A DNA stretch of 64,000 nucleotides from Kiritimatiellia bacterium. GTDB taxonomy: Bacteria; Verrucomicrobiota; Kiritimatiellia; RFP12; UBA3636. Where the stretch lies: contig JAFUOX010000043.1 in assembly GCA_017481725.1 (NCBI GenBank), forward strand, positions 12,757 through 76,756, read 5' to 3'. Positions 7,593-40,975 of the stretch are shown here, one piece after another (positions within the stretch are counted from its first letter, which is position 1; the number at the start of each line of letters is the position of its first letter). Below the pieces are notes generated by a model. The model saw only the letters and a program-made list of their open reading frames with translations, made no database searches and was not told the origin of the DNA. The position numbers and the translations under genes are program-made.

Positions 7593-8798
7593 ATGAAAAT
7601 CATAGAAAATGGTACTGTCACTTCCGCCAAAGGATTTATGGCAAGCGGAGTAGCTGCTGGAATCAAGGTAAATAGACTTGATATGTCAATTATTGCTTCC
7701 GACCGCCCAGCAGTTTGTGCAGCAATGTTTACACAGAATCGCGTGCCTGCGGCTCCTGTTCAGTATGATAAGCCATTGGCAGCAAAAGGTAACTGCCGAG
7801 CAGTGGTTGTGAATGTTGGCTGTGCTAATGCTTGCACAGGTGAGGGTGGCTATGCAGATGCTGTCGAGATGGGTCAGCTTGCTTCTGCTGCAATCAATAT
7901 CCCAGTAGAGGAGATGCTTGTCTGCTCAACAGGCACAATCGGTCGCCGCTTGCCAATGGATCGAGTACGCAATGGTATTAAGCTTGCTGCTGAAGCTCTT
8001 TCTTATGATGGTGGTACTGCTGCCGCAGATGCAATTCTAACAACAGACCTTGTCCCAAAGAAGGCAGCTGTTTCAATTTCAATCGATGGCACAGAAGTTG
8101 TTGTTGGTGGAATTTGCAAGGGCTCTGGCATGATTTGCCCTAATCTCGCAACAACTCTTTGCTTTATCACAACAGATGCAAAGGTAAAGCAGTCTGCACT
8201 TCAGGCTGCAACTCGTGCAGCAGTTGAAAAATCTTTTAATCGCATCACTGTTGATGGCGACCAAAGCACAAATGACACATTTGTTGTTTTTGCAAATGGT
8301 GCCGCTGGTTGTGCAGAGCTTGATGAAGCACACCCAGATTGGAGCAAGTTCGTTGAAGCTCTAACTGAGGTTGCAACAAGCCTAGCAAAGCAGATTGTTA
8401 TGGATGGTGAGGGTGCAACAAAGTTTGTTGCTATCACTGTTGAGAAGGCTGTGTCAAACGCAGATGCACTTCTTGCTTGCCGCGAGATTGCAAATTCTCC
8501 TCTATTCAAGACAGCTTGTTTCGGCGGAGATCCAAACTGGGGTCGCGTAATCTCTGCTGTTGGAAACTCAGGCTGCGAGGTTGAGGAGCTAAAGACAGAA
8601 ATTTATTTTGATGATGTTTGTGTGTTCAATAAGGGTAAGCTTGCTAGTGAAGAGGATAATGAGCGCTTGGCAAAGGTTATGGCACAGCGTGCATTCAGCG
8701 TAACTGTTAAGCTAAACCTTGGCGAAGGAGAGGACACTGTTTACACGAGCGACCTTTCCTATGGCTATGTAAAAATCAATGGCGAGTACACAACATAA
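7593..8798 (+). CDS. argJ: bifunctional glutamate N-acetyltransferase / amino-acid acetyltransferase
   Basis: About 400 aa with VTSAKGF, GICKGSGMI.PNLATTLCFITTDA (autoprocessing Thr region) and a C-terminal GYVKINGEYTT. Confidence 0.92.
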   Translation: MKIIENGTVTSAKGFMASGVAAGIKVNRLDMSIIASDRPAVCAAMFTQNRVPAAPVQYDKPLAAKGNCRAVVVNVGCANACTGEGGYADAVEMGQLASAAINIPVEEMLVCSTGTIGRRLPMDRVRNGIKLAAEALSYDGGTAAADAILTTDLVPKKAAVSISIDGTEVVVGGICKGSGMICPNLATTLCFITTDAKVKQSALQAATRAAVEKSFNRITVDGDQSTNDTFVVFANGAAGCAELDEAHPDWSKFVEALTEVATSLAKQIVMDGEGATKFVAITVEKAVSNADALLACREIANSPLFKTACFGGDPNWGRVISAVGNSGCEVEELKTEIYFDDVCVFNKGKLASEEDNERLAKVMAQRAFSVTVKLNLGEGEDTVYTSDLSYGYVKINGEYTT

Positions 8799-8827
8799 GC
8801 TTCAGTAGTTTTTTAAGGTGTATTTTT

Positions 8828-9706
8828 ATGATGGAAGAATATATTAAAAAAGCAGACACTCTAATTGAGGCTTTGCCATATATTGCTCGTTTTAAGGGCG
8901 AAATGATTGTGGTAAAGCTCGGTGGCAGTGTAATGGAGAGCGAAGAGAATCTACGCTCTATTTTGACCGATATCGCATTTATGCGTATAGTCGGTATGCG
9001 CCCAATTGTGGTGCACGGAGGTGGTAAAGCCATCTCTCGTGGTTTAGCAAAGGCTGGTATTGAGACAAAGTTTGTTCAGGGCTTCCGCGTGACAGATGAG
9101 GCCTCTATGAAGGTCATGGAGGATGTTATCAAGAATGAGGTTAATGCTAGTGTTGTTAAAATTCTTCGTGAAGCTGGCGTAGATGCTCAGCCAATGTATG
9201 GCGACAATATTTATTTTACAACCCGCAAAACCGGCAAGGATTCTGAAACTGGTGCAACTATTGATTGGGGCTATGTTGGTATCCCAATGTCAGCAGATAC
9301 TGGTCCAGTGCGTGAGCTACTTCATGCAGATACAATCCCTGTGATTTGCCCAGTTGGTAGGGGTGCAGATGGTCATGCCTATAACATCAATGCTGATGTG
9401 GCAGCGTCTGCTCTTGCAAAGGCTCTAAAGCCTCGTAAGCTTGCTTTTGTTTCTGATGTGCCTGGTCTATTGCGAGATCCAGCAGACCCTAGCTCTCTAA
9501 TCAACACGATTACTGCAGAGCAAGGTCAGGAACTAATTAATCAAGGAATTGCTGGTGGCGGTATGCTACCAAAAATACAGAGCTGCCTTGAGGCTTTGGC
9601 CGCAGGCGTTCGTAAGGTTCATCTTGTTGATGGCAGAATGCCACACTCGCTTCTGCTTGAAATATTTACTAATAACGGTGTAGGAACGGAGATAGTTAGA
9701 CAATGA
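8828..9706 (+). CDS. argB: acetylglutamate kinase
   Basis: VVKLGGS, VVHGGG and YNINAD motifs. The stop overlaps the argD start (ATGA). Confidence 0.92.
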   Translation: MMEEYIKKADTLIEALPYIARFKGEMIVVKLGGSVMESEENLRSILTDIAFMRIVGMRPIVVHGGGKAISRGLAKAGIETKFVQGFRVTDEASMKVMEDVIKNEVNASVVKILREAGVDAQPMYGDNIYFTTRKTGKDSETGATIDWGYVGIPMSADTGPVRELLHADTIPVICPVGRGADGHAYNINADVAASALAKALKPRKLAFVSDVPGLLRDPADPSSLINTITAEQGQELINQGIAGGGMLPKIQSCLEALAAGVRKVHLVDGRMPHSLLLEIFTNNGVGTEIVRQ

Positions 9707-10923
9707 GTAAAAAAAATGACAATGTAGTTGAGGATTGCAGCAAATATATCATGAACACTTATGCAAGGGGTGAAGAAACTCCTGTGCTTGTTAGTGGTAA
9801 GGGTTGCCGCGTTAAGGGTAGCAATGGCAATCAGTATTTAGATTTTACATCTGGTATTGCAGTTCAGAATATCGGTCACTCAAATCCAAAATATATCGAG
9901 AAGGTTACTGCACAGCTTGAAAAGATGGTTCACTGCTCTAATCTTTTCTACAATGCAAATCAGGTTGCTCTAGCAAAGAAGCTTGTACAGCTAAGCGGTC
10001 TTGATGGTAAGGCTTTCTTCTGCAATTCTGGTGCAGAGGCAAATGAAGCAATGATTAAGCTAGCTCGCCTATATGGTAGCGAGAGTGGTCGCTATGAAAT
10101 CATTTGCATGAAAAATTCATTCCATGGTCGCACAATGGGTACTCTTTCTGCAACAGGACAGAGCAAGGTTCAGAAGGGCTATGACCCACTTCTACTTGGC
10201 TTCTCTTTTGCTGAGTTTAATGATATCGCTTCAGTAAAGGAGCAGATCACAGATAAGACAGTTGCAATTCTTCTTGAGCCAGTACAGGGTGAGGGTGGTG
10301 TGCTTCCTGCAACTCCTGAGTTTATGGAAGGCGTGCGTGCACTTTGCGATGAGCATAATCTTCTAATGCTTTGCGATGAGGTTCAGTGCGGTATGGGTCG
10401 CACAGGTAAGTGGTTTGGTTGGCAGAATTATTCTGTTGCTCCAGATGCTTTCTCTCTAGCAAAGGCTTTGGCTGGTGGTATCCCTATGGGTGCTATGATT
10501 GCTTCAAAGAAGGTTGCTGATGTATTTGTTCCGGGTTCACATGCTTCCACATTCGGTGGTGGTGCATTGGCTAGCGCAGCAGCTCTTGCTGTTATTGAGA
10601 CAATCGAGGATGATAAGCTTCTTGATAACACAAACAAGATGAGCGAGCTATTTATGACAGGCCTACAGCAGTTTGCAGACAAGTACGATCAGGTGCTTGA
10701 AATTCGCGGCTGTGGTCTTCTAATCGGCATGGTTGTTGAGGATGGCTTTGCAAAGAAGATTGTTGATGAACTTTGCTTTGGTGGCTTGCTAGCATGCGTT
10801 GCTGGACCAAATGTTGTTCGCTTCCTACCTCCTCTATCATTGACAGATAGAGACCTAGATGAGGCTTTGGATATGATCGATGAAGCTCTTGAAATCGTAT
10901 TCGAACCAGAGGAAGAAGCATAA
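9703..10923 (+). CDS. argD: acetylornithine aminotransferase
   Basis: Class-III aminotransferase motifs are present: FCNSGAEANE, DEVQCGMGRTGK and the PLP Lys context SLAKALAGG. Confidence 0.9.
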   Translation: MSKKNDNVVEDCSKYIMNTYARGEETPVLVSGKGCRVKGSNGNQYLDFTSGIAVQNIGHSNPKYIEKVTAQLEKMVHCSNLFYNANQVALAKKLVQLSGLDGKAFFCNSGAEANEAMIKLARLYGSESGRYEIICMKNSFHGRTMGTLSATGQSKVQKGYDPLLLGFSFAEFNDIASVKEQITDKTVAILLEPVQGEGGVLPATPEFMEGVRALCDEHNLLMLCDEVQCGMGRTGKWFGWQNYSVAPDAFSLAKALAGGIPMGAMIASKKVADVFVPGSHASTFGGGALASAAALAVIETIEDDKLLDNTNKMSELFMTGLQQFADKYDQVLEIRGCGLLIGMVVEDGFAKKIVDELCFGGLLACVAGPNVVRFLPPLSLTDRDLDEALDMIDEALEIVFEPEEEA

Positions 10924-10971
10924 GCTTTTTAACTTTCGAATTTTTAAAATATTTAGTTTAGGAGAATAAAA

Positions 10972-12210
10972 ATGGCTCTAACAGTTGATGAAATGAAGGG
11001 ACGCAAGATTGGTATCTGCGTATCTGGTGGTTTGGATAGTAAAACAATCGCAATTCGTTTGCGTGAGGCAGGAGCAGATGTGCTTTGCTTTACAGCTGAT
11101 CTTGGTCAGCCAGACGAGAAGGATATTCGCGATGTTCAGAAGAAGATGGCTCCTTGTGGAGTTGATACTGTTATCGTTGATGTTCGCGAGGAAATGGCAG
11201 AGGCTTGCTTCAAGACAATTATGGCAGAGGCAACCTATGATGGCGGCTACTGGAACTCAACTGGTATTGGTCGTGCTGTAACAGTTCGCAAGATTGTTCT
11301 TGAGATGAAGAAGCACGGAATCTCAACACTTGTTCATGGTGCAACAGGTCGCGGTAACGATCAGATGCGTTTCGAGCGCTACACAAATCAGTTTGCTCCA
11401 GAGATGACAGTTTATGCTCCATGGCGTGATGCAAAGCTTCTAGAGGAATTCCCTGGCCGTACTCAGATGTGCGAGTATCTAGCAAAGTATGATATTGTTG
11501 CATTCCCTGGTGGTAAGAAGCGCTATTCAACAGACTGCAATATCGCTGGTCTATCTCATGAGGCAGAGGACCTAGAGAGCATGGAAACAGCAATGACAAT
11601 CGTTGAGCCAACAATGGGCGTATGGCCAATGCAGGCTCCTGATGCAATTGAGTCTGTAAAGATTAAGTTTGAGAAGGGTCGTCCTGTTGCAATCAATGGT
11701 GTTGAGATGAAGCCATTTGATCTACTTGTTGAGGCAAACAAGATTGGTGGCCGCAATGGTATTGGTATGAGCCATGCTCTTGAAAACCGCATTATCGGCA
11801 CAAAGAGCCGTGGTGTTTATGAGGCTCCAGGTATGGAAATGCTTGGCAAGGCTCTACGCTATGTTTATCAGGCAATCATGGATAAACCATCAACAACATT
11901 GTTTGAGCAGCTATCTCGCTTTGTTGGTGTTCAGATCTACGATGGCAAATACTATGATTTGTCAACTCAGGCTGCTTTTGCTGCAATCGAGAAGTTTGCA
12001 GATAAGGCAACTGGTGAGGTAACTGTTGGCCTATATCGCGGCAATATCCTATTCCAGAGCTTGACTGGTGTTGAGGCTTCTCTATACTTTGAAGAGGATG
12101 CTTCTATGGAAGCAAGCGAGGGCTTGAATCCTGTAAGCTCTCAGGGCTTTGCTGAGATTCAGAGCGTTGAAGCTCGCTCAATGGCAAAGGCTGGTCACAT
12201 TAAGGCATAA
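10972..12210 (+). CDS. argG: argininosuccinate synthase
   Basis: ICVSGGLDS (P-loop-like), HGATGRGNDQMRFE and ENRIIGTKSRGVYE motifs. Confidence 0.93.
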   Translation: MALTVDEMKGRKIGICVSGGLDSKTIAIRLREAGADVLCFTADLGQPDEKDIRDVQKKMAPCGVDTVIVDVREEMAEACFKTIMAEATYDGGYWNSTGIGRAVTVRKIVLEMKKHGISTLVHGATGRGNDQMRFERYTNQFAPEMTVYAPWRDAKLLEEFPGRTQMCEYLAKYDIVAFPGGKKRYSTDCNIAGLSHEAEDLESMETAMTIVEPTMGVWPMQAPDAIESVKIKFEKGRPVAINGVEMKPFDLLVEANKIGGRNGIGMSHALENRIIGTKSRGVYEAPGMEMLGKALRYVYQAIMDKPSTTLFEQLSRFVGVQIYDGKYYDLSTQAAFAAIEKFADKATGEVTVGLYRGNILFQSLTGVEASLYFEEDASMEASEGLNPVSSQGFAEIQSVEARSMAKAGHIKA

Positions 12211-12214
12211 GCAT

Positions 12215-12739
12215 ATGTTGACCGCTGAACAAGAGCAAGCAGTACGCACTTGGGCACAGGAAGGCGCGAGCTTATCTGAGATACAGACGCGCCTTGCTGA
12301 AGAATTTGATATCCATCTAAGCTATATGGACACCCGTTTTCTTGTGATGGATATCAATGCAAATATCAAGGACAAAGAAACACCTGCTCCAAAGCAGCCA
12401 GAGCCACCAGCACGTGCAGAGGCACCTGCAAGTGGTGTTGTTCATGATATTGATGCAGAGAGCGAGAGTGGGGTTGCTTCAGAGATGGAAGCAATGCCAA
12501 TGGGTGGCGCAAAGCCAGTCGAAGAGGGTGAGCTAACAATTGAGCTTAGCCGCATTCAGAAGCCAGGCTTTGCACTTTGCGGAAGCCTAGTTTTCCCTGA
12601 TGGTGAGACTGCAGAATGGGGTATCACAAATGATGGCCGCATCGCTCTTGACCCTGCCACAGAAGGCTATCGCCCAAGCCAGGAATATATTCGCCAATTC
12701 CAAATGAAGCTTAAGGCTCTAATTGAGTCTGCTTATTAA
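12215..12739 (+). CDS. hypothetical protein (N-terminal HTH-like helix bundle, P/E/A-rich linker, C-terminal beta-rich domain)
   Basis: The ATG at 12215 lies 4 nt after the argG stop. The longer 12149 start would overlap argG and is unlikely. No family recognised. Confidence 0.5.
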   Translation: MLTAEQEQAVRTWAQEGASLSEIQTRLAEEFDIHLSYMDTRFLVMDINANIKDKETPAPKQPEPPARAEAPASGVVHDIDAESESGVASEMEAMPMGGAKPVEEGELTIELSRIQKPGFALCGSLVFPDGETAEWGITNDGRIALDPATEGYRPSQEYIRQFQMKLKALIESAY

Positions 12740-12751
12740 AAGCGTTATTTT

Positions 12752-12780
12752 ACCTTGGATTGCCTTTGCTAATCCAAGGT
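12752..12780 (+). other. intercistronic hairpin (10-bp perfect stem ACCTTGGATT / AATCCAAGGT, 9-nt loop)
   Basis: Read directly from the sequence. No T-run follows, so it is not a canonical intrinsic terminator. It lies between the unknown gene and proC. Confidence 0.4.
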
Positions 12781-12817
12781 GAAATGTTCTATAAATCGAC
12801 ATAACATAATTTCGAGA

Positions 12818-13621
12818 ATGACTATGCCAAAAATAGGTTTTTTAGGTGCAGGTAAAATGGGTGGAGCAATCCTAGTTGCTCTAAAAAATGCAAAGGCTGC
12901 AGAAAAGCTTTATGCTTGTGATGCTTATCAACCACGCCTTGATGAGCTAAAGAAAAAATATAAGGTTCAGCCAGCAACTGCTCTTGAAGTCGTTGAAAAA
13001 TGTGATGTCGTTTTTCTTGCAGTAAAGCCTCAGGATTTGGAACCACTCCTAAAGTCTGTGGCAGAGTCTGAATTTGCTGCACATCCTCTTTACATCTCTA
13101 TTGCGGCAGGTAGAAGATTGGAGTGGCTTGAAGCTCTTCTTCCTAAAGCTGCAATTGTCCGTGCAATGCCAAACCTTGCAGTGTCTGTTGGTGAGGGCAT
13201 GACAGGTTATGCTATCGGCTCAAAGGTAAAGAAATCTCAAGCCGCTCTCGCAGGAAAGCTTCTTGCACTAACAGGTAAAGCTGTATTGCTCCAAGAGGAG
13301 CAACTTGATGCAGTTACAGCTCTCAGTGGCTCCGGTCCCGCATTTATGGCTTATGTTCTCCAAGCAATGATTGATGGAGGAGAAGCTCTAGGTCTTCCTG
13401 CTGATGCAGCAAAAACATTAGCACTCCAAACAATGCTCGGAACAGCAAAGGTATTGCAATCCTCCGAAGGTTCAATTTCCGATTTTATTAAAGCAGTAAC
13501 ATCTGCAAAAGGAACCACGGCTGAGGGACTTGCTGTTCTTGAAAAATCTGCAATCAAAGGCACAATGAAGAGAACTCTCTCTGCTGCTGCACGCCGCAGT
13601 AAAGAGCTAAGCAAAATTTAA
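12818..13621 (+). CDS. proC: pyrroline-5-carboxylate reductase
   Basis: IGFLGAGKMGGAI Rossmann motif and SAKGTTAEG near the C-terminus. The start is at ATG 12818 or 12824; the GTG at 12779 lies inside the hairpin. Confidence 0.88.
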   Translation: MTMPKIGFLGAGKMGGAILVALKNAKAAEKLYACDAYQPRLDELKKKYKVQPATALEVVEKCDVVFLAVKPQDLEPLLKSVAESEFAAHPLYISIAAGRRLEWLEALLPKAAIVRAMPNLAVSVGEGMTGYAIGSKVKKSQAALAGKLLALTGKAVLLQEEQLDAVTALSGSGPAFMAYVLQAMIDGGEALGLPADAAKTLALQTMLGTAKVLQSSEGSISDFIKAVTSAKGTTAEGLAVLEKSAIKGTMKRTLSAAARRSKELSKI

Positions 13622-13639
13622 TTTTACTTCTGATTTAAA

Positions 13640-14479
13640 ATGACAAAAAAAAGATCGAGTTTTAATATCAATATACCTTATGGCTTACGCCACCCTGCCA
13701 CAGGATCAAAAAACACTAATAATGATGTTGCATTTGATAATATGGCAGAAATCAAGCGTCGTGCAATAATTAAAGCAGCAATAGTGCCTTTTGTCCTAGT
13801 GCTTGGATTTTGCATTTCAATAATTATTGGCTCTTGTCACAATGAAAAACCAGTAGTCACTGATGAAGAAAAAAAGCCAGAAAAACCTGTCGTTGTTAAA
13901 AGCAACACCATTGCTAAGCCTAAGTCTAAGGGGGTTGATTTAGTTAATCCTGTTCGCCCAGCTCCAGCAAAATTTCCTCGTAATTCTAAAATGCCTAATA
14001 AGCGTGAACGCGATGTTTGTGGCGAGATTGTTAATGGTAAATTCTCTCCAGGTAGAGATTTAATTTTTGTGACCGATTCCCGCGTCTGGTGGGAGAGCGA
14101 TAATGATGGAGTAAGCGATGATGAGTGCGATCATTCTATGCACCGCGCAATGGAAATTCCATTCCGTAGATTGGTCAATCTTGTTGAAGCACAAACAAAG
14201 CTCCAATTAAGAGTGCAAGAGGTTTATCGGCCCGAAGGCATTCATTCTGAAAAGTCTCTTCATAAGGAAGGTCGTGCAATTGATATGACACTCGGCTACA
14301 AGAATGGAGAAAAGCTTAAAACCGCCGCAGAAATGAATGAGGCGTATGAGCAGCTATGTAAGCTCGCTTGGCAGGCTGGCTTTGATTGGGTTTTCTATGA
14401 ATATGGCTCTGGCTCCGGCCCACATGTTCATGCCTCTATAAAGGCAACTGGTCCTTTTTTGACAGATAAGACGAAGTAG
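13640..14479 (+). CDS. membrane-anchored Hedgehog-N-like / LAS-family (DD-peptidase-type) zinc protein
   Basis: A TM anchor (aa about 42-66) and a K/P-rich linker are followed by LRVQEVYRPEGIHSEKSLHKEGRAIDMT...AGFDWVFYEYGSGSGPHVHASIKA. H208-x6-D215 plus H262-x-H264 form a zinc triad, and E254 is present. See findings. Confidence 0.75.
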   Translation: MTKKRSSFNINIPYGLRHPATGSKNTNNDVAFDNMAEIKRRAIIKAAIVPFVLVLGFCISIIIGSCHNEKPVVTDEEKKPEKPVVVKSNTIAKPKSKGVDLVNPVRPAPAKFPRNSKMPNKRERDVCGEIVNGKFSPGRDLIFVTDSRVWWESDNDGVSDDECDHSMHRAMEIPFRRLVNLVEAQTKLQLRVQEVYRPEGIHSEKSLHKEGRAIDMTLGYKNGEKLKTAAEMNEAYEQLCKLAWQAGFDWVFYEYGSGSGPHVHASIKATGPFLTDKTK

Positions 14480-14502: not shown

Positions 14503-15231
14503 ATGAAAGGAAAGCTTAAAGGAGTGGTTGAGGGCAAAGGCTCCTCCGCTGGTAAGTACTTTGCTATAAATTATGGCCCTATGCCACGATTTAAAGCATT
14601 GCTAATGGAGCTTTGTGTTTTTCTATTTGGAAATATGGCTGGTGCCGCAGGGCTTTTCTTCCGCTCGAAGCTTTATCGCTGCTTCCTCGGTAGCTGTGGT
14701 AAGAAACTTGTTGTTGGTAGAGGCGTTACTCTAAGACATCCTTCTAAAATACATTTTGGCGATGGTGTTATTCTTGACGATAATAGCGTGGTTGATGCAA
14801 AGGGTGAGGATAACGAGGGCATTACCTTCGGTAATAATGTATATATAGGGAAAAACTCTATTGTGTATTGCAAAAATGGCAATATCACCCTTGAGGACAA
14901 GGTAAATATTTCTGCAAATTGCATAATTTTCTCTTCAAATTCACTAACCATGCACCCAGGCAGTATGGTGGGTGCATATTCATATTTTTTGAGTGGTGGT
15001 GAATATGATTATTCAGACCCAACCCCATTTGCAGAGCAAAGTGGTATGTGTACTAAGGGACCTCTTGAGATTGGTGCAAATTGCTGGTTTGGCACACGTG
15101 TCACAGTGCTAGATTCAACAGCAACAATAGGAGAGCATTGTGTGTTTGCAGCTGGTACCGTTGTCACAAAGCCAACAGAACCCAATGGCTTGTATGTAGG
15201 TGCACCAGCAAAGCTGGTTAAGTCAATTTAA
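14503..15231 (+). CDS. left-handed beta-helix (hexapeptide-repeat) acyl/acetyltransferase
   Basis: Repeated [LIV]-G-x4 hexapeptide turns (IHFGDGVILDDNSVV, ITFGNNVYIGKNSIV, IGANCWFGTRVTV, IGEHCVFAAGTVV). An AAGGAGGA RBS is present. Confidence 0.75.
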   Translation: MKGKLKGVVEGKGSSAGKYFAINYGPMPRFKALLMELCVFLFGNMAGAAGLFFRSKLYRCFLGSCGKKLVVGRGVTLRHPSKIHFGDGVILDDNSVVDAKGEDNEGITFGNNVYIGKNSIVYCKNGNITLEDKVNISANCIIFSSNSLTMHPGSMVGAYSYFLSGGEYDYSDPTPFAEQSGMCTKGPLEIGANCWFGTRVTVLDSTATIGEHCVFAAGTVVTKPTEPNGLYVGAPAKLVKSI

Positions 15232-16604: not shown

Positions 16605-17705
16605 ATGGGCTTGGGGTTACGCAACAAGAATATAAACTATGATGAAGGTTGGTTTTTTGTCACTTTTCAAGTGGCACAAAACAAAAGCCTTCTTGGTGCT
16701 ATTGTAGAAGAACAATGTATCCTCAATGAACTAGGAAATGCGATTGAAAAAAATATTCAAAAGCTCCCCCAAATATATAAAAATGTATATATAGACAAGC
16801 ATGTGGTGATGCCCAATCACATACACATGATAGTGAAACTGTCTGGGTCTGGGTCTGGGGGCAGAGCCCCAGACCCACGATATAATGTAGGTGTGGGATA
16901 TCGCTCTTCTTCTAATTCCGCTGGTTTGGGGCATTGCTCTTCTAATACCGTGGGGTTGGGGCTCAGCCCATCTTCTAATATCGTGGGTTTGGGGCTCTGC
17001 CCATCTTCTAATATCGTGGGTTTGGGGCTCCGCCCCCAAACCCAAACCAAAAATTTATCTCAGATTATTGGCGGCTTTAAAAGCTATACCTCTAACATTT
17101 ATTTAAAACTAAAAAAACAAAATAAATGCCCAGATATAGGTGCAAAACTATGGCAGTCAAGCTACTATGATGTTCTTATTTCAAATCATCAAAAACTTGA
17201 AAATATAAGAAATTATATAGAAAATAATCCTAGAAATTGGGAGCAGGATCGCTTCGGTTCAGTCACGCAATTTTCTCTTGGCAATATTGAGCTACTAAAT
17301 GAGCCTCTAACTGCATTTGTTGCAAGTGAAGGACTAAATGACGGCAAGATGCAATGTATAAAAAAAGGTTTTGAAAAAGATTCTGCTCAAAAGAATAATC
17401 CTGTAATTTCAACCTTTAGTAGCTATGAAGAAAGATGCGTTTTAAATAAATGCTTGGCACATAAACGCCCCATAATAAAGGTGTGCCCTGGCGGGATTCC
17501 TTCTAATCTAGAGCAAAATCTAAAGCAAGCAGTAGATGAAAATAGATGCTTATTAATTTCTCCTATCGGAGCAGAAGTAGGAATAAACAAGCAAAGAGCA
17601 AATGTGTGTAACTTTTATGTTTTAAAAAATGCTGAGGAAATATGGACAGGACACATTCGCCCAGGTGGAAGCCTAGAATCAATTTTGAAAGGAATTAGCC
17701 TATGA
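16605..17705 (+). CDS. IS200/IS605-type Y1 HUH transposase-like protein (RAYT-like) with an internal repeat insertion and an extra C-terminal domain
   Basis: GWFFVTFQ, HUH motif MPNHIHMIV (H72/H74), IIGGFKSYTS, and the catalytic-Tyr region LWQSSYYDVLI...IRNYIENNPRNW. About 65 aa of G/S/L/P repeats separate HUH from the next helix. About 150 extra aa follow NPRNW. Confidence 0.7.
   Translation: MGLGLRNKNINYDEGWFFVTFQVAQNKSLLGAIVEEQCILNELGNAIEKNIQKLPQIYKNVYIDKHVVMPNHIHMIVKLSGSGSGGRAPDPRYNVGVGYRSSSNSAGLGHCSSNTVGLGLSPSSNIVGLGLCPSSNIVGLGLRPQTQTKNLSQIIGGFKSYTSNIYLKLKKQNKCPDIGAKLWQSSYYDVLISNHQKLENIRNYIENNPRNWEQDRFGSVTQFSLGNIELLNEPLTAFVASEGLNDGKMQCIKKGFEKDSAQKNNPVISTFSSYEERCVLNKCLAHKRPIIKVCPGGIPSNLEQNLKQAVDENRCLLISPIGAEVGINKQRANVCNFYVLKNAEEIWTGHIRPGGSLESILKGISL
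16841..17043 (+). repeat. GC-rich in-frame repeat block: (GTCTGG)x3, hairpin 1, four 30-33-bp tandem units, hairpin 2
   Basis: Hairpin 1 is GGGTCTGGGG-GCAGAG-CCCCAGACCC (16851-16876). Tandem units start at 16908, 16938, 16971 and 17004 (tcttctaatatcgtgggtttggggctc..). Hairpin 2 is GGGTTTGGGG-CTCCGC-CCCCAAACCC (17018-17043). Confidence 0.85.
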
Positions 17706-17962: not shown

Positions 17963-17991
17963 ACTCCTTGTTATAAATGTATGGAGGTATT

Positions 17992-19152
17992 ATGATTTCT
18001 CGAAAAATAGAAACTCAGCTACGTAACCTATCAAAAATGTATCCAGTTGTAACTATTACTGGACCTCGGCAATCTGGTAAAACAACACTTGCTAAAGCCG
18101 TTTTCCCTACATATAAATATGTAAGCCTTGAGAATCTAGATGTTCGTGAAATGGCTCAAAAAGACCCAAGAGGATTTTTGAAATTATATTCTGCACCTGT
18201 AATACTTGATGAAATCCAACGCGTGCCTGAATTGTTAAGTTATATTCAAACGATTGTGGATGAAACAAATATTGCTGGACAATATATTCTTACAGGTAGT
18301 CATCAACCGCTTCTTGGCCAAAGTGTTGCACAATCGCTTGCAGGAAGAACGGGTATATTAAAATTATTACCACTTTCAATGGAAGAACTTAATAATGCAG
18401 GTATAAGCTTAGATCGTGATGAATACCTGTATAATGGCTTTATGCCTCGATTGTATGATAAAGGTATAGATTCAAGAGATCTTTATCGAGATTATTTTTC
18501 TACATATGTTGAAAAAGACTTGAGAATGATATTAAATATTAAAAACCTCTCTTCTTTTGAAACTTTTATTAAACTATTAGCAGGAAGAGTAGGGCAGTTG
18601 ATAAATTTGTCTTCGCTCAGTAATGATGTTGGGGTGTCTTCACAGACACTACAGCAGTGGTTGTCTGTGCTCGAAGCAAGCTTCATAATATTTAGATTAC
18701 CATGTTATTATGAAAACTTTGGTAAGCGGTTAGTGAAAAGTCAAAAACTTTATTTTACAGAGGTTGGGCTTGTTTCTTGGCTTTTAGGCATAAATTCTTA
18801 TGAACAGGTAGCAAGGGATCCTTTATTAGGAGGACTTTTTGAAAATATGGTAGTGATTGAAGCTCTCAAGCATCAACTAAATTTAGGAAAATTGCCAGAA
18901 CTATATTTTCTCCGTGATTCACAAGGCATGGAGGCAGATTTGGTTTATCGGGCTAATCATAACCAATTAGTGCCAGTTGAAATAAAAGCAAGTGCCACAT
19001 GGAATGATGATTTTTGTAAAAACTTGATAAAAATGAAAAAGCTTTCATCCAAGTTTACCGATGGGTATGTAATATATAGTGGAGAACTATCTCCAGAAAT
19101 AGATGGGGTTAAATTTTTAAATTATAAGAATACATCATCAATATTTTTATAA
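17992..19152 (+). CDS. AAA-type ATPase with a DUF4143-like C-terminal domain (COG1373-like)
   Basis: Walker A GPRQSGKTTL and Walker B ILDEIQ. The architecture is typical of AAA_14+DUF4143 proteins. The ATG at 17992 follows GGAGG; the 17977 start is also possible. Confidence 0.8.
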   Translation: MISRKIETQLRNLSKMYPVVTITGPRQSGKTTLAKAVFPTYKYVSLENLDVREMAQKDPRGFLKLYSAPVILDEIQRVPELLSYIQTIVDETNIAGQYILTGSHQPLLGQSVAQSLAGRTGILKLLPLSMEELNNAGISLDRDEYLYNGFMPRLYDKGIDSRDLYRDYFSTYVEKDLRMILNIKNLSSFETFIKLLAGRVGQLINLSSLSNDVGVSSQTLQQWLSVLEASFIIFRLPCYYENFGKRLVKSQKLYFTEVGLVSWLLGINSYEQVARDPLLGGLFENMVVIEALKHQLNLGKLPELYFLRDSQGMEADLVYRANHNQLVPVEIKASATWNDDFCKNLIKMKKLSSKFTDGYVIYSGELSPEIDGVKFLNYKNTSSIFL

Positions 19153-35041: not shown

Positions 35042-36091
<1,050 letters not shown>

Positions 36092-36205
36092 TTAGCTGAA
36101 CAAGAATTTTTATTTAAAATACTCGGTATTTCTAAATCATTTTGTATAACGACGCACACAGCCCTTGTTTAGTAATTTATTAGTATCGCTAACAAAGGTT
36201 ATGTA

Positions 36206-37111
36206 GTGAAGAGACAAAGATTTTTAGTGATTGGCTTGCTCGCAGTTTGCATTGCGTGTCTATGCTTTTATTTAATCACTATTCTTTTTAGAGCAATCAA
36301 TAAGGCGACCACAAAGGAGTTGCTTGCACCATATGAGCGTGTGGCAAATTCTGTTGCGTCAGATGCTGCAGACTCGGAAGAGAAGCGAGATCTTCGAATT
36401 GAGGTGCATGCTGCATTGCTAGAGAAGTTCCAGCGTGAGAATGCAGAGCTTCGCCGTCAGTTAGATATTGCTCAAACCTATAAACAGTTAATTTCTGCAC
36501 AGGTGATTTCACGTGGCGGAGATGGCTGGTGGAGGGTTGTTCGTTTAGATAGAGGAAGTAAGCATGGTATCAATGTTGATGCCACAGTGGTTGCTATCCC
36601 TAGTTACCTAGAGGATCCAGAATTTAGAGGCTGGGCAGAAACAAATAAGCTGCATATTGCACTTGTTGGTCGTGTAATTGCTACAACAGCAAATACATCA
36701 GATGTGCTTTTGCTTACAGATCCTAATAGTAAGGTGGCTTGCCGCATCCGTGAAAATAATTCTACTGCACGTGGAATTCTTTGTGGAATGGGTGTTCGAG
36801 CAAATTCATCAAATTTAGACTTCTTGAGCGTGGTAGAACCACTTAGCTTAGATTATATTTCAAAGAAGCAAACCCCAGAAAAAGGTATGCTTATTGAAAC
36901 AAGTGGGCTAGGAGGAGTTTTCCCTGCACGCATCCCCGTCGGCAAAATTATTGCTGTTGAGGAGGCGCCTTCCAATTTATATTTGAGTGCAAAAATTGCA
37001 CCATTTGTGGACTTTGCTACATTAGAGCATGTGATGATTATCGCTTCAGCAAAAGCAGCTCATGCAGCAGTTGGTCCACCAGAAAAGGTGGAGCCAGAAA
37101 ATGAGAAATAA
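36206..37111 (+). CDS. mreC: rod shape-determining protein MreC
   Basis: Position after mreB, an N-terminal TM anchor, a coiled coil (ENAELRRQL), and beta-barrel domains with TSGLGGVFPARIPVG. The start is a GTG. Confidence 0.8.
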   Translation: MKRQRFLVIGLLAVCIACLCFYLITILFRAINKATTKELLAPYERVANSVASDAADSEEKRDLRIEVHAALLEKFQRENAELRRQLDIAQTYKQLISAQVISRGGDGWWRVVRLDRGSKHGINVDATVVAIPSYLEDPEFRGWAETNKLHIALVGRVIATTANTSDVLLLTDPNSKVACRIRENNSTARGILCGMGVRANSSNLDFLSVVEPLSLDYISKKQTPEKGMLIETSGLGGVFPARIPVGKIIAVEEAPSNLYLSAKIAPFVDFATLEHVMIIASAKAAHAAVGPPEKVEPENEK

Positions 37112-37628
37112 TAATAATCGAATAGTTTTATCTCTCATATTGGCATTTACATTTTCTGCCTTTTTGCAGGATAGGCTTCCGCCTTTTTCTATGTATGCTA
37201 TTAAGGTGCCTTTTGTGTTGGCTCCATTTATCTATTATGTGTTTAGACATAAATTGGTGATTGGTATAATTGCAGCAATTTGTTGTTCAATTATGGGAGA
37301 TGGGCTTTCTATTAGTAGTGGAGTGGCATATCTTATTGTTAGCATTGGAACACTTTTCTTAAACCATTATGTTTTTAAAAAGCAGCTTCCTGATAATTCG
37401 ATTTCATGCGGGTTGATAGCTATTCCTTTAACTGTGTTGGTGTTGTTAATACAATATGCATCTATAGTTATATTTACTGAGAATGCATTTCATATTAGTT
37501 TTGTTTTGGTTAAGCTAATAATTACAGCTATTTTAACAGGCGTGGCAACAATAGCACTTTCTGAAGCATTTTACCGTTTTGAATTAATTGTTGGCAATAT
37601 AGAGGTGGCAGATGAAGAACTTGGTTGA
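37101..37628 (+). CDS. mreD: rod shape-determining protein MreD (small polytopic membrane protein)
   Basis: Position between mreC and mrdA, with about 5 TM segments. The ATG at 37101 overlaps the mreC end. The call is by synteny. Confidence 0.6.
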   Translation: MRNNNNRIVLSLILAFTFSAFLQDRLPPFSMYAIKVPFVLAPFIYYVFRHKLVIGIIAAICCSIMGDGLSISSGVAYLIVSIGTLFLNHYVFKKQLPDNSISCGLIAIPLTVLVLLIQYASIVIFTENAFHISFVLVKLIITAILTGVATIALSEAFYRFELIVGNIEVADEELG

Positions 37629-39768
37629 GAAGGAAGCGGCTGCCGCACGTATACGCCTAATAGTTATGGGCGTGCTAATGCTAATAGGTGTTTTTTATTT
37701 GCTATTTTGCCTATATGATATTCAAGTGAAGCAAACTCGCACCTTTAAGTCTGCTCAAGAATTTCATTCATTGCGTAGAGTGCGCCTTCCTGCAACGCGA
37801 GGAAAAATATTAGATAGAAATGGTATTGTACTTGCAGATAATAAGCCTTCCTATTGTGTTTCAATTTATCTTGAAGAAATGCGCCAAAAGGGAGCATGGA
37901 CAAATACCATAAATCATGTTGCTGAGCGTCTTGCCGAAATATCTGAAATTGTGGGTGTCCCTTGTGAGGTTGATAAGGAAGGTATTTGGGCTCATATTCG
38001 TCGCCGTAGGGCAATACCTATGGTAGCATTCCGCGGATTAGATGATGTGGCTGTGGCTCGTTTAAGTGAAAATGCAAAGCATATCCGTGGTGTTGATATT
38101 TCTGTTCAAGCAGAGCGTGTATATCCATATGGAGATTTGGCTTGCCATCTAATAGGATATGTGGGAAAAGGCCAACCAGATAATTTAGAGCAAGAACTAA
38201 ATCCAGATGGATTAGAGGATTTTGATGCAGAAAGTCTAGAATATGATTTTCTTTTACCGGATTTTGTTGGCAAGGATGGTGTTGAAAAGGCATGTAATTC
38301 AACATTAGCAGGCGTTGGTGGAGGCGAATTAATTCGCATTAATGCTGTGGGCTACCGTCATGAATCATATATGGGAAAACAACCTGTTCTAGGTAAGGAT
38401 GTTGCCCTAACAATTGATTTACGCTTACAGAAGCTTGCAGAGGAAGCTCTTGATGGAGTTCGTGGAAGTATTATTGTTATGGATTGTGAGACAGGAGAGC
38501 TTCTTGTTGCTGCAAGTGCTCCACGATATGATTTGTCTCGTTTTGTTCCAACACTTTCAGGTAGCTATTGGAAAGAATTATTAAATGATCCAATGCGCCC
38601 ATTGTATGGTCGTGCATGTAGTGGTATTTATGCACCTGGTAGTATTTTTAAACCTCTAGTTGCACTTTCTGCTTTGCGTGAGGGTGTAATAGATGCACAG
38701 ACACATTTTTATTGTAGTGGTAGAATCGAGATAGGAGGGAGTGTTTTCCGTTGTGCTCGCCGTTCAGGTCATGGTGACATCAATTTACGTCAGGCAATCT
38801 GTGGCTCTTGCAATCCATTTTTTATAATAGCTGGAACACGTTTGCATTATGAACCGTATATTTATCAAGATGCATTAGATGTTGGTTTTGGTCAAGCACC
38901 ACAGCTTGAAATTCCTTGCTCAAAGGGAGTGCTTCCTTCCTCCGCGTGGAAGCGTAGGCGTGAGAGAGATGGCTGGCGTGATGGAGATACTGCCAATGTT
39001 TCTATGGGTCAGGGATATCTTTCTGTTAGCCCATTGCAGGTTGCGGTGTATACAGCTGCACTTGCAAACGGTGGTAAGGTGTTGCGCCCTCGCTTGGTTC
39101 TTCCTGAAGGAGGTAAAATAGAAGAGGGAGAAGTGCTTAGACACATGAATTGGAGAAGCCAGGATTTGAATTTGGTCAAGCTTGGTATGTGGGATGTGGT
39201 CAACAGCGGATGGGGAACTGGTCGCAGAGCAAAGCTTGATGGAGTGTCATTAGCAGCAAAAACAGGTACTGCAGAATATATGGATAAAGGTGAAAAGAAA
39301 AAGAATGCTTGGATGATTGGCTTTGCTCCTTTTGAAAAACCAAAATATGCTATTGTTACAATGCAGGAGGATTCAGATGCAGGTGGACTTTCCGCAGCAC
39401 GCTTAATGCGTCAAATGACTCAGGCAATTTTCCTCCCAGATACTGTTCAAGCTAATATTGAAGAACTGGTAGAGGAGGAGCGGAGCTTTGTTGAAATTAA
39501 TGAGGTGGTTCCAGTTGATGCAGATATTGATTTGGAGATACATCCAGAACAGCTTATTATTGAACCAATTTTAATTTCAGAGGAGAATAACTCACAATCA
39601 ACAAATTCTCTTATGCAGATTTCAGCTCCATTGACATCAGAGCAAATAGATTCAATTTATATGGCACCAGAAGATATTCAAGATTCCTCTGAGACCCTGC
39701 CACAATTAGAAATAGATATGCATTCAAATATGCCTCCTAACCAAGAAACAAATGAGGAGGAAGATTAA
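37612..39768 (+). CDS. mrdA: penicillin-binding protein 2 (elongasome transpeptidase) with an acidic C-terminal extension
   Basis: SxxK (GSIFKP), SxN (GSCNPFF) and KTGT motifs. An N-terminal TM anchor is present, and the gene is adjacent to rodA. Confidence 0.88.
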   Translation: MKNLVEKEAAAARIRLIVMGVLMLIGVFYLLFCLYDIQVKQTRTFKSAQEFHSLRRVRLPATRGKILDRNGIVLADNKPSYCVSIYLEEMRQKGAWTNTINHVAERLAEISEIVGVPCEVDKEGIWAHIRRRRAIPMVAFRGLDDVAVARLSENAKHIRGVDISVQAERVYPYGDLACHLIGYVGKGQPDNLEQELNPDGLEDFDAESLEYDFLLPDFVGKDGVEKACNSTLAGVGGGELIRINAVGYRHESYMGKQPVLGKDVALTIDLRLQKLAEEALDGVRGSIIVMDCETGELLVAASAPRYDLSRFVPTLSGSYWKELLNDPMRPLYGRACSGIYAPGSIFKPLVALSALREGVIDAQTHFYCSGRIEIGGSVFRCARRSGHGDINLRQAICGSCNPFFIIAGTRLHYEPYIYQDALDVGFGQAPQLEIPCSKGVLPSSAWKRRRERDGWRDGDTANVSMGQGYLSVSPLQVAVYTAALANGGKVLRPRLVLPEGGKIEEGEVLRHMNWRSQDLNLVKLGMWDVVNSGWGTGRRAKLDGVSLAAKTGTAEYMDKGEKKKNAWMIGFAPFEKPKYAIVTMQEDSDAGGLSAARLMRQMTQAIFLPDTVQANIEELVEEERSFVEINEVVPVDADIDLEIHPEQLIIEPILISEENNSQSTNSLMQISAPLTSEQIDSIYMAPEDIQDSSETLPQLEIDMHSNMPPNQETNEEED

Positions 39769-39769
39769 T

Positions 39770-40975
39770 ATGGTTTTATCAAAATACAAAAAGAATACAT
39801 CAAGCCCAAATAAAGGCTTTAGCTTCCCAAGTTTTAATTGGGTGCTTATGCTATGCATGGGGATTCTTTTAACAATCGGTGTACTATTTGTTAAAAGTGC
39901 AACAAATATGCGCACCGATAGTGTTCATTATCTATATGTTCAGATGCTTATCAAATGGATACCACTCGGTATAATCGCACATTTTGGCATCGCATTCTTT
40001 GATTATCGTAAGCTTTCAGAAAAAGCGTGGCTGTTGTATGCGCTGGGTATCTTTTTGTTAATTCTTGTTTTGATACCAGGAATAGGCACAGCAAGGCTTG
40101 GTGCTCGCCGTTGGATTTTTGGTTTATTTCAACCTTCTGAATTTATGAAGCTGTGTATAATGCCAGCAGCAGCATTGTTATTGGGAAAATATACGGGAAT
40201 AAAGGATAGATATCGCTTCGGTGCAACGCTTGTTGTTTTTGCAATCCCAATGGGTTTAATTGCAATTCAACCGGATTTGGGTAGTGCTATTGTTTTTGTT
40301 CCAGTATGTCTAGCAATGCTTTTTGTTTCTGGCTGCTCGCCACGTCTTCTTCTTACAATATGCTTAGTAGGCGTATTTTGTATTAGTGTAGTTCTTGCTC
40401 TTATTTTGATTCCAGATAAAATGCCAGAGGAAAAGCGAGCAAGGATTGAAAGTGTTACAGATAATTTTATTTTTCCGCACTGGAAAAAACGTGTGAGAGT
40501 TTTTGTTAATCCAGATCATGATCCTTTGGGTGCTGGCTGGAATAAGAAGCAATCCGAAATTGCTGTTGGTAGTGGTGGCAAATATGGAAAAGGCTATCTT
40601 AATGGCACTCAAAATATTCTAGGCTTTTTACCAAGATCTGTATCTTCAACAGATTTTATTTTCTCTGTTATAGCTGAGGAAATGGGGTTTGTTGGAAGTT
40701 GTGTCTTGTTAATTCTTTTCGGTGGCATGCTTATAAGCATTGCCGTAACCGGTATCTTTTGTGGTGACGCCTCTGGCAGATTGATTTGTGCAGGTGTCTC
40801 CGCATTGTTTTTTGCACATATATTTGTCAATATAGCTATGACAATAGGTAAGATGCCTATTACAGGTATTCCACTGCCTTTTATTAGCTATGGAGGCACT
40901 TTTACAATATCAACAATGGCATTGCTCGGATTAGTACAGAGTGTGGCTATACATAGTAAGCCATCTCAATCTTGA
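39770..40975 (+). CDS. rodA: SEDS glycosyltransferase RodA
   Basis: FtsW/RodA/SpoVE family motifs: QPSEFMKL, SDFIFSVIAEEMGF, and PITGIPLPFISYGGT. Confidence 0.9.
   Translation: MVLSKYKKNTSSPNKGFSFPSFNWVLMLCMGILLTIGVLFVKSATNMRTDSVHYLYVQMLIKWIPLGIIAHFGIAFFDYRKLSEKAWLLYALGIFLLILVLIPGIGTARLGARRWIFGLFQPSEFMKLCIMPAAALLLGKYTGIKDRYRFGATLVVFAIPMGLIAIQPDLGSAIVFVPVCLAMLFVSGCSPRLLLTICLVGVFCISVVLALILIPDKMPEEKRARIESVTDNFIFPHWKKRVRVFVNPDHDPLGAGWNKKQSEIAVGSGGKYGKGYLNGTQNILGFLPRSVSSTDFIFSVIAEEMGFVGSCVLLILFGGMLISIAVTGIFCGDASGRLICAGVSALFFAHIFVNIAMTIGKMPITGIPLPFISYGGTFTISTMALLGLVQSVAIHSKPSQS

Follow-up and report, generated by a model that had tools for sequence, protein, structure and literature searches.

A Hedgehog-N-like protein of a Kiritimatiellia bacterium and its distinct family of relatives in the PVC group

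A gene at positions 13640..14479 (+ strand) was analyzed in a 64,000-nucleotide stretch of DNA from a Kiritimatiellia bacterium (assembly GCA_017481725.1, contig JAFUOX010000043.1); this whole stretch is called the window below. The gene is a complete open reading frame (ORF) for a protein of 279 residues, based on the ORF list and its translation. By sequence comparison and structure prediction, the catalytic domain of the protein is a full Hedgehog-N (Hh-N) domain of the Hh/DD-peptidase (LAS) fold, and the likeness extends beyond the zinc motif. It is not the first bacterial Hedgehog, because bacterial Hedgehog-like proteins (bacHh) have been published and members of the present family have been labelled PF01085 automatically. 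Peptidases of this kind had been known from bacteria before; the new element is a distinct, widespread, and chromosomally stable variant with an apparently rebuilt calcium site. The window contains one copy of the gene, with a GC content of 41% compared to 39.6% for the window, and gene calls on 8 public metagenome contigs give the identical protein beside the same neighbours. The gene and its parts are listed below, with the basis of each assignment in brackets (pLDDT, predicted local distance difference test of the AlphaFold2 model; Shh, Sonic hedgehog).

13640..14479, + strand: whole gene for the Hedgehog-N-like protein of 279 residues, stop codon included (ORF list, translation)
13640..13768, + strand: basic N-terminal tail, residues 1-43, net charge +5, predicted cytoplasmic (composition, alignment, low pLDDT)
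13769..13837, + strand: predicted hydrophobic signal-anchor helix, residues 44-66, ending in the lipobox-like I-I-G-S-C66 (Kyte-Doolittle, AlphaFold2 model)
13838..13936, + strand: flexible stalk rich in K, V, P, and E, residues 67-99 (composition, alignment, pLDDT 54-75)
13937..14455, + strand: globular Hedgehog-N / LAS-fold domain, residues 100-272 (pLDDT, Foldseek, hhalign, Pfam HH_signal)
14087..14134, + strand: acidic loop WWESDNDGVSDDECDH, residues 150-165, candidate remodelled cation site (conservation, Shh alignment)
14219..14236, + strand: EVYRPE, residues 194-199, counterpart of the Shh calcium ligands E127/D130/D132 (alignment, conservation)
14243..14284, + strand: HSEKSLHKEGRAID, residues 202-215, with H202 and the H-x6-D zinc ligands H208 and D215 (alignments, conservation)
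14375..14431, + strand: AGFDWVFYE...HVH, residues 246-264, with E254, H262, and H264 (alignments, conservation)

The Hedgehog identity was first compared at the level of profiles. Pfam HH_signal (PF01085) matched the protein with 47.4 bits (E 2.2e-12), above its cutoff of 22.1, while VanY (18.2 bits) and Peptidase_M15_4 (15.2 bits) matched residues 205-254 under their cutoff of 25; this is the comparison with the M15 families that an earlier note on this DNA had proposed, and only HH_signal was significant. As a single-sequence result, the HH_signal match spans residues 166-265 and only profile positions 74-160 of 161; in the alignment, the family itself is conserved from about residue 100 on. 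NCBIfam contained no family match for the protein. A phmmer search of PDB sequences returned 25 matches, all of them Shh, Ihh, Dhh, or Hh chains (best E 4.6e-11). With a profile of 44 family members the best Shh match reached E 2.5e-20, and no non-Hedgehog chain, M15 included, appeared at E<=1. The strings quoted in the earlier note are all present, namely DLIFVTD at 140-146, LQLRVQEVYRPEG at 188-200, HSEKSLHKEGRAIDMT at 202-217, AGFDWVFYE at 246-254, and HVHASIKA at 262-269, and its numbering of H208, D215, E254, H262, and H264 is right. The Shh sequence that it quoted agrees with the PDB Shh chains in the segments aligned by phmmer.

The homology includes the non-catalytic N-terminal half of the domain. 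Profile-profile alignment by hhalign to animal Hh plus bacHh gave a probability of 99.8% (E 9.6e-28, 148 columns) and placed query residues 110-276 on Shh 41-195. The joint Hh and bacHh profile was needed for the N-terminal half, as the family profile compared with the single Shh sequence aligned over the C-terminal 72 columns only. BLASTP against two classical bacHh showed 30-33% identity over 166-171 residues (E~1e-19), and the segment MPNKRERDVCGEI of the N-terminal half was aligned with VPNKKERDVVGPI of bacHh. Identity to Shh by BLASTP was 44% across the C-terminal 82 residues. One pairing in the earlier note was displaced: DLIFVTD is present, but it is not the counterpart of DIIFKDE in Shh, because in the profile-profile alignment KELTPNYN of Shh stands opposite RDLIFVTD, and PDIIFKD of Shh opposite SRVWWES, with DNDG inserted. 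MAFFT agreed with this register, which shifts the proposed pairing by one beta-strand of the hairpin.

The predicted structure covers the entire domain. The AlphaFold2 model, built on an alignment of family members, showed high pLDDT, about 90 or more, over residues 100-279 (block values mostly 89-99) and a helix at 35-65. In a Foldseek search of the PDB, the first 38 matches were all Hh N-domain chains (E~1e-11), with TM-scores of 0.65-0.84 normalised to the Hh chain and 165-178 aligned columns for chains of 145-165 residues. The next LAS enzymes were LysB4 (8e-3), MepA (2.6e-2), and ChiX (0.25), with TM-scores of at most 0.46, so the model compares far better with Hh-N than with other LAS enzymes. 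Taken with the HH_signal score, the Hedgehog-only PDB matches, and the whole-domain alignment, these results uphold the claim that the likeness exceeds a generic LAS/M15 signature.

A phage-endolysin origin was also considered. The PHROGs contained nothing under E 0.05, and the viral predicted structures of BFVD contained nothing at E<=1e-3 and weak M15A-like matches only. This origin was rejected.

Conservation was counted over 154 family sequences. The zinc ligands H208 (Shh H141), D215 (D148), and H264 (H183) are kept in 154, 152, and 153 of them, the base E254 (E177) in 153, and the stacking histidines H202 (H135) and H262 (H181) in 153 and 151; each of the six positions is thus at least 98% conserved. 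The catalytic roles of the equivalent Shh residues were taken from PMC6027127 and PMC8052667. The LAS signature (H208-x6-D215, H262-x-H264, E254, and H202) is therefore complete, and zinc binding is predicted from sequence. The zinc triad and the Glu of the YE motif pointed out in the earlier note are accordingly conserved in 152-154 of the 154 relatives.

The calcium site shows a different pattern. The equivalent of Shh E127, E194, is acidic (E/D) in 148 of the 154 sequences and that of D96, D164, is kept in 144, but the ligand D130 is replaced by a near-invariant arginine (R197, Arg in 145) and position 199, the D132 equivalent, is variable. The partial loss of acidic residues that had been suspected here was borne out. 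An acidic loop, E152-S-D154-x-D156-G-x-x-D160-D-E162-C-D164-H, takes the place of the Shh loop D89-D96 (E90/E91/D96) and is 4 residues longer; apart from D164, its residues E152, D154, D156, D160, and E162 are conserved in 142, 141, 135, 132, and 145 sequences, respectively. These patterns suggest that the two-calcium site of Hh and bacHh was rebuilt around an arginine and an enlarged acidic loop. R197 possibly substitutes for one cation, and the acidic loop possibly holds another.

The family is large and was found in one bacterial group. A word-indexed search gave 362 clusters at 90% identity; all 120 among the matches listed carry the automatic PF01085 label, and the named ones among those listed are from Kiritimatiellae/Kiritimatiellia or Lentisphaerae metagenome-assembled genomes (MAGs) and are called "hypothetical protein". 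An exhaustive hidden Markov model search of 1.84 billion representatives yielded 646 proteins with E<=1e-3, of which 393 reached <=1e-10 and 41 reached <=1e-30. Below the 41 there is a gap and then a plateau at 1e-15 to 1e-17, and the plateau members that were sampled are animal Hedgehogs and classical bacHh. This distribution points to a clade of its own, made up of about 41 clusters at 50% identity. When one genome per species was scanned, 89 relatives were found, and the 80 listed are all MAGs of the PVC (Planctomycetes-Verrucomicrobia-Chlamydiae) group, assigned to Kiritimatiellia, Lentisphaerae/Victivallales, or "Verrucomicrobia", many from ruminant guts. The closest of these 80 is 83% identical to the query (locus L008). 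The earlier note's statement that bacterial Hedgehog-like proteins are reported only sporadically remains true of the literature, with about a dozen bacHh, but not of the databases, where this family alone makes up the 362 clusters.

In the trimmed domain alignment, mean identities were 47.6% within the PVC family, 29.8% between PVC and bacHh, 28.4% between PVC and animal sequences, and 46.4% between bacHh and animal sequences. A midpoint-rooted neighbour-joining (NJ) tree, which included bacHh sequences as the earlier note had asked, placed the PVC sequences in one cluster and bacHh together with animal Hh in the other.

The classical bacHh were described by Roelink in 2018 (PMC6027127) as about a dozen proteins more than 50% identical to Shh-N over ~145 residues, with zinc and calcium residues all identical to Shh and with the domain forming a C-terminal portion of bigger proteins. 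Jägers and Roelink (2021, PMC8052667) found them to be accessory, non-core genes among lytic enzymes. The two reference bacHh used here, Bacillus tropicus WP_270185596.1 (1105 residues, plasmid) and Pararhizobium gei WP_275791455.1 (412 residues, conjugative plasmid), both showed 52% identity to Shh over 139-148 residues and HH_signal scores of 170-175 bits. The present protein shares with bacHh a bacterial origin, the full Hh-N fold with whole-domain homology, an identical zinc triad and Glu base, the stacked histidines, and a predicted periplasmic or extracytoplasmic location, and some bacHh are also small lipoproteins by prediction (P0157, P0178). However, it is ~28-30% identical to Shh compared to 44-53% for bacHh, and its HH_signal score is 47 bits compared to 140-175 bits per domain. 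With 44% identity over 82 residues and a mean of 28% to animal Hh, it falls short of the ~50% identity to Shh-N over ~145 residues by which bacHh are recognized. All six calcium residues (E90, E91, D96, E127, D130, and D132) are identical in bacHh, whereas the PVC family keeps only the equivalents of E127 and D96, has Arg for D130, does not conserve D132, and has the acidic loop extended by 4 residues. Finally, genes of the PVC family occur widely in one bacterial group and lie on the chromosome in housekeeping surroundings, whereas those of bacHh are found among lytic enzymes as accessory or plasmid-borne genes.

Compared to animal Hh-N (PDB 1VHH, 3M1N, and 2WG4), the fold (TM-score up to 0.84), the zinc site, and the equivalents of E177, H135, and H181 are the same, and attachment to the membrane through the N-terminus would parallel the lipid anchoring of the animal proteins. 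In contrast to animal Hh, the query has no Hint/Hog autoprocessing domain or cholesterol site and ends 15 residues past HxH; no further Pfam domain was found in it. It also lacks the Ptch1-binding peptide/Cardin-Weintraub motif, since the alignment starts at Shh 41 and the upstream part is stalk and transmembrane segment. Its calcium site is only partly conserved, it has inserts of 10 residues at 227-236 and of 4 residues before the HxH motif, and its bacterial host has no Hh pathway. With the LAS enzymes of MEROPS M15 and M74 (VanY, VanX, Streptomyces albus DD-carboxypeptidase, MepA, LysB4, and ChiX) the protein shares H-x6-D...H-x-H and the central antiparallel sheet, and chemistry and substrate class are presumed to be alike. 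Those enzymes differ in having no N-terminal Hh-N half, and their sequence scores are marginal and their fold scores weak (E 8e-3 to 0.25). A literature search on Hedgehog or HH_signal proteins in Kiritimatiellae, Lentisphaerae, and Verrucomicrobia found no description of the PVC lineage in the set of papers searched, and an Aravind-lab paper (PMC3417536) concerns HINT and SuFu origins only.

The N-terminus has one strong hydrophobic segment at ~44-65 (Kyte-Doolittle maximum 2.9 at 46-64). The start at 13640 is backed by homologs that keep M.KKRS.FN..IPYGLR in the alignment and have no internal Met. The start and a signal-anchor topology are both supported because the query's own sub-clade keeps the long N-terminal extension and several of its members have no internal Met; the basic tail of residues 1-43 is confined to this sub-clade. 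The query motif I-I-G-S-C66 fits the PROSITE-type lipobox pattern, yet the Cys lies at 66 from the supported start, compared to the usual ~15-35. The anchor may be a lipoprotein signal instead of a type-II transmembrane helix. The type-II anchor proposed in the earlier note agrees with the basic tail and the single hydrophobic helix, and is left in question by C66; the K/P-rich stalk that it described was confirmed by composition as a spacer rich in K, V, P, and E. The stalk, about 35 residues long, has low model confidence and varies in length and sequence among homologs. An N-terminal hydrophobic segment was found in 107 of 121 homologs, and in 53 of the 121 a PROSITE-type lipobox and Cys close the segment. 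The Cys is at position 35 or earlier in 34 of these 53, which are predicted to be textbook lipoproteins.

The lipobox-like I-I-G-S-C66 is encoded at 13823-13837 of the window, and a lipoprotein Cys is predicted in the relatives P0058, P0074, P0078, P0157, and P0178. Many family members and some classical bacHh are predicted lipoproteins, which after processing would begin with a lipidated Cys and then G-(K/R). In animal Shh, too, the lipid is carried by the Cys after the signal peptide (...SGLAC, followed by GPGRG). The parallel between the two is our own reading and may be a coincidence.

For function, we regard a membrane-tethered, periplasm-facing zinc hydrolase of peptidoglycan peptides as the probable class. 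Computed results are the fold and the extent of the domain, the conservation, the separate clade, the gene context, and the peptidoglycan synthases in the window, whereas the enzymatic activity, the substrate, and the topology are inferred, as is what R197 and the acidic loop do. In the proposed mechanism, the basic tail (1-43) and the hydrophobic helix (44-65) would hold the protein in the inner membrane with the N-terminus in and the C-terminus out, and the ~35-residue flexible K/P/V/E stalk would give the domain of residues 100-272 access to the peptidoglycan. If it works as LAS enzymes do, H208, D215, and H264 would hold Zn2+, E254 would activate the water, and the stacked H202 and H262 would stabilize the transition state. 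The most likely target would be a peptide bond, either in the stem of the peptidoglycan or in its cross-link. At the calcium site, Arg197 would stand where the ligand D130 stood, and the acidic loop E152...D164 would replace the E90/E91/D96 loop. The DD-peptidase role suggested in the earlier note is supported as far as a zinc hydrolase of cell-wall peptides; for the bond, DD-carboxypeptidase, DD-endopeptidase, and L-Ala-D-Glu endopeptidase activities are among the candidates.

To our knowledge, all characterized bacterial LAS/M15 enzymes cut cell-wall peptides. This class is favoured because of that precedent and four further observations. A bacHh relative of 1127 residues, P0155, has two HH_signal domains together with Amidase_2, Glucosaminidase, PG_binding_1, and DUF2272/CHAP in Pfam; it looks like a tandem "Hedgehog" cell-wall hydrolase and is the strongest indirect pointer to murein for bacterial Hh-N domains. 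Published bacHh genes have lysozyme, amidase, and M23 genes around them (PMC8052667), PBP2 and RodA were identified by Pfam in the window, and Kiritimatiella has a peptidoglycan wall (PMC5148204).

Several points weigh against this account of the protein and its family. No substrate has been demonstrated for classical bacHh (PMC6027127, PMC8052667), and none for the PVC family either. Peptidase activity of the Hh-N fold is disputed for animal Shh. There is no family-wide link to cell-wall genes, and the neighbours are unrelated housekeeping genes. The motif patterns of the genome scan came from the PVC family itself, and the restriction to PVC rests on that scan and on the named matches; absence outside PVC is unproven for this reason. 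The NJ tree has no outgroup and only midpoint rooting, so that the term "sister lineage" carries no ancestry claim.

The other explanations differ in substrate, in role, and in whether the Hedgehog likeness is accepted. An active Hh-fold zinc hydrolase could act on a non-peptidoglycan envelope substrate, for example a lipoprotein, a protein of the periplasm or outer membrane, or an exopolymer that bears peptides. The conserved catalytic residues fit such an enzyme, the family has no conserved linkage to mur/pbp genes, and the substrate of the Hh-N fold is not established in any organism; the acyltransferase downstream in ~15 of 80 genomes and the NTP_transferase near the gene in the closest ones might point there, but this linkage is limited to one sub-lineage. 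As the characterized LAS/M15 enzymes all act on cell-wall peptides and the bacHh fusion with amidase, glucosaminidase, and PG-binding modules indicates murein, we consider a non-murein substrate unlikely. A lytic weapon or scavenging enzyme against other bacteria is what the accessory bacHh suggest: their domains are C-terminal in large plasmid proteins (Bacillus tropicus, 1105 residues; Pararhizobium gei, 412 residues), the Pararhizobium gei gene adjoins a muramidase-domain gene, classical bacHh genes lie among lytic enzymes outside the core genome (PMC8052667), and P0155 is a multi-hydrolase. The present protein is instead small and, by prediction, tethered by a transmembrane or lipoprotein anchor and not secreted, and its gene is single-copy in the window, has housekeeping neighbours in each lineage examined, with no mobile-element, toxin-delivery, or immunity genes beside it, and tracks the neighbouring proC in identity. 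Together with the missing viral endolysin-like match at E<=1e-3, this makes a weapon quite improbable.

The two remaining explanations set the Hedgehog likeness or the activity aside. M15 peptidases and Hh-N have the same zinc arrangement and the LAS/DD-peptidase fold (PMC6027127), and the sub-threshold VanY and Peptidase_M15_4 matches at 205-254 would suit an ordinary M15/VanY-type D-Ala-D-Ala carboxypeptidase whose Hedgehog likeness is only the shared LAS zinc signature. Both scores are below 25, however, while HH_signal is 25 bits over its own cutoff; the family-profile PDB search at E<=1 returns Hh proteins only, the Hh-N fold matches ~8 orders of magnitude better than LysB4, MepA, and ChiX, and the homology runs through the non-catalytic N-terminal half of Hh-N. 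An ordinary M15 enzyme is therefore very hard to maintain. A catalytically dead binding or structural domain has a precedent in Drosophila Hh, for which such a role was proposed and which is functional though its zinc and Glu residues are lost (PMC6027127), and the animal proteins among the best PDB matches could suggest a eukaryotic contaminant or a recent animal transfer. These are effectively refuted by conservation and context: the catalytic residues are all at least 98% conserved, the gene GC matches the window, bacterial synteny is kept in many MAGs, and overall identity to animal Hh is ~28% with no Hint/Hog domain.

The gene neighbourhood supports part of what had been called a core operon. 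The nearest neighbours are as follows.

12779..13621, + strand: proC, pyrroline-5-carboxylate reductase (Pfam P5CR_dimer, F420_oxidored); gene callers start it at 12824
14503..15231, + strand: hexapeptide-repeat acyltransferase, 23 nt downstream of the Hedgehog-like (HH) gene (Pfam Hexapep)

The gap after proC is 18 nt (13622-13639), and the hexapeptide acyltransferase, the NTP_transferase, and the type II secretion system G (T2SS-G) pseudopilin genes downstream are all on the + strand, both as described before. To survey the neighbours at 80 loci, 11 reference neighbours were used as tblastn queries and the flanking ORFs were clustered. The order of an unknown ~174-residue gene, proC, and the HH gene was found in ~17 of 80 species genomes, and the acyltransferase follows in ~15 of 80. 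A relative at 68% identity has argJ-argB-argD-argG-(173 residues)-proC-HH-NTP_transferase-rplM-rpsI. A few species genomes have pgpA-HH-argF, and in one relative an Orn/DAP/Arg decarboxylase gene lies downstream. More distant members adjoin an M16 peptidase (9), dprA (7), scpB (6), or a gene similar to trpB (5), while a further 62 neighbours occur only once. The operon description holds for the query's sub-lineage (unknown gene, proC, HH, and acyltransferase, ~17 of 80) and not for the family as a whole: among the 80 loci no family-wide functional partner was found, linkages are lineage-specific, and a conserved operon as a family property was rejected.

In the lineages examined, no mobile-element, toxin-delivery, or immunity genes were found beside the HH gene, and the neighbours are housekeeping genes. 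In syntenic loci the HH identity declines alongside proC identity, as expected for co-inheritance, and the family appears to be vertically inherited. On the + strand, no terminator-like site was found between proC, HH, and the acyltransferase, in a promoter and terminator scan whose counts were no higher than in shuffled sequence; the result is compatible with co-transcription of the three genes and proves nothing. No RNA family of Rfam was found in the window.

The gene at 12215-12739 (+), between argG and proC, encodes the conserved ~174-residue protein, which has no Pfam family and is co-conserved with proC-HH in 17 species genomes; the TTG start listed for it, at 12149, falls within argG and probably lies too far upstream. 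Arginine, ornithine, or proline genes adjoin the HH gene in three arrangements, with an arg cluster and proC, with argF, and with an Orn/DAP/Arg decarboxylase gene (8828-13621 of the window, 7684-8682 of locus L004, and 7793-9031 of locus L006). This linkage is absent in about 60 of the 80 loci.

A more speculative reading was also considered. The PVC family could be the vertically inherited core-genome counterpart of the Hedgehog/bacHh lineage, with a plan prefiguring the lipidated animal Hedgehog and a specificity perhaps tuned to an ornithine-containing wall; we hold this to be doubtful. The plan would start with a Cys-terminated signal peptide or anchor (by prediction lipidated in many members), followed by a linker and the Hh-N domain. 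Hydrolysates of Kiritimatiella, Victivallis, and Oligosphaera contained ornithine (PMC5148204, Spring et al. 2016), and these clades are carriers of the PVC family. An ornithine-tuned specificity would fit the recurrent proC, argF, and Orn/DAP/Arg decarboxylase neighbours. The ornithine and ancestral elements draw on correlation only. If true, they would offer a tractable bacterial enzyme to define the bond cut by the Hedgehog fold, and a candidate bacterial source of the Hh-N domain.

It has long been asked whether the Hedgehog N-domain works as a peptidase or arose from one that did. Bacterial relatives in the literature are few in number, accessory, and uncharacterized. In the PVC family, the complete Hh-N fold, with its catalytic set intact, is encoded by a stable chromosomal gene throughout an entire group of PVC bacteria. 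This lineage, as far from classical bacHh as from animal Hh, widens the bacterial side of Hedgehog evolution and leaves the basic picture unchanged. It would also provide a natural variant in which the calcium site is rebuilt around arginine, and its small single-domain members suit a biochemical definition of the substrate of the fold.

Further features were observed in the window and among the relatives. The ORF at 16605-17705 (+) encodes 366 residues; its match to the IS200-like Y1 transposase domain is confined to the domain's second half, it has a long C-terminal extension, and three in-frame 33-nt tandem repeats at 16938-17035 (93% matches, SSNIVGLGL-type units) interrupt it. This ORF and the adjacent AAA_14/DUF4143 gene (17977-19152) are absent from the syntenic locus L001, where NTP_transferase is followed directly by rplM. 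The window has two AAA_14/DUF4143 ATPase genes, at 17977-19152 (+) and 55506-56846 (-), and such genes also lie near the HH gene in unrelated loci (L006, 1-869; L007, 3669-4919); in these genomes the family seems to be multi-copy and is possibly mobile. P0158 (251 residues) has five tandem copies of the C-terminal Hh motif with G/R/E-rich spacers between them and probably reflects an error in assembly or gene calling that involved a eukaryotic Hh exon.

At 35072-40975 (+), PBP2 (37612-39768) and RodA (39752-40975) come after ORFs that have the sizes of mreB, mreC, and mreD, forming a complete-looking elongasome cluster in which PBP2 and RodA are assigned by Pfam and the mre genes by size only. 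Nearly all ORFs of at least 180 residues over ~55 kb (44-55414) are on the + strand, with a switch at ~55.5 kb, and a co-directional array of this length is unusually long. It includes, at 50985-53795 (+), a 936-residue protein with Laminin_G_3 (concanavalin-like lectin) and CotH kinase domains.

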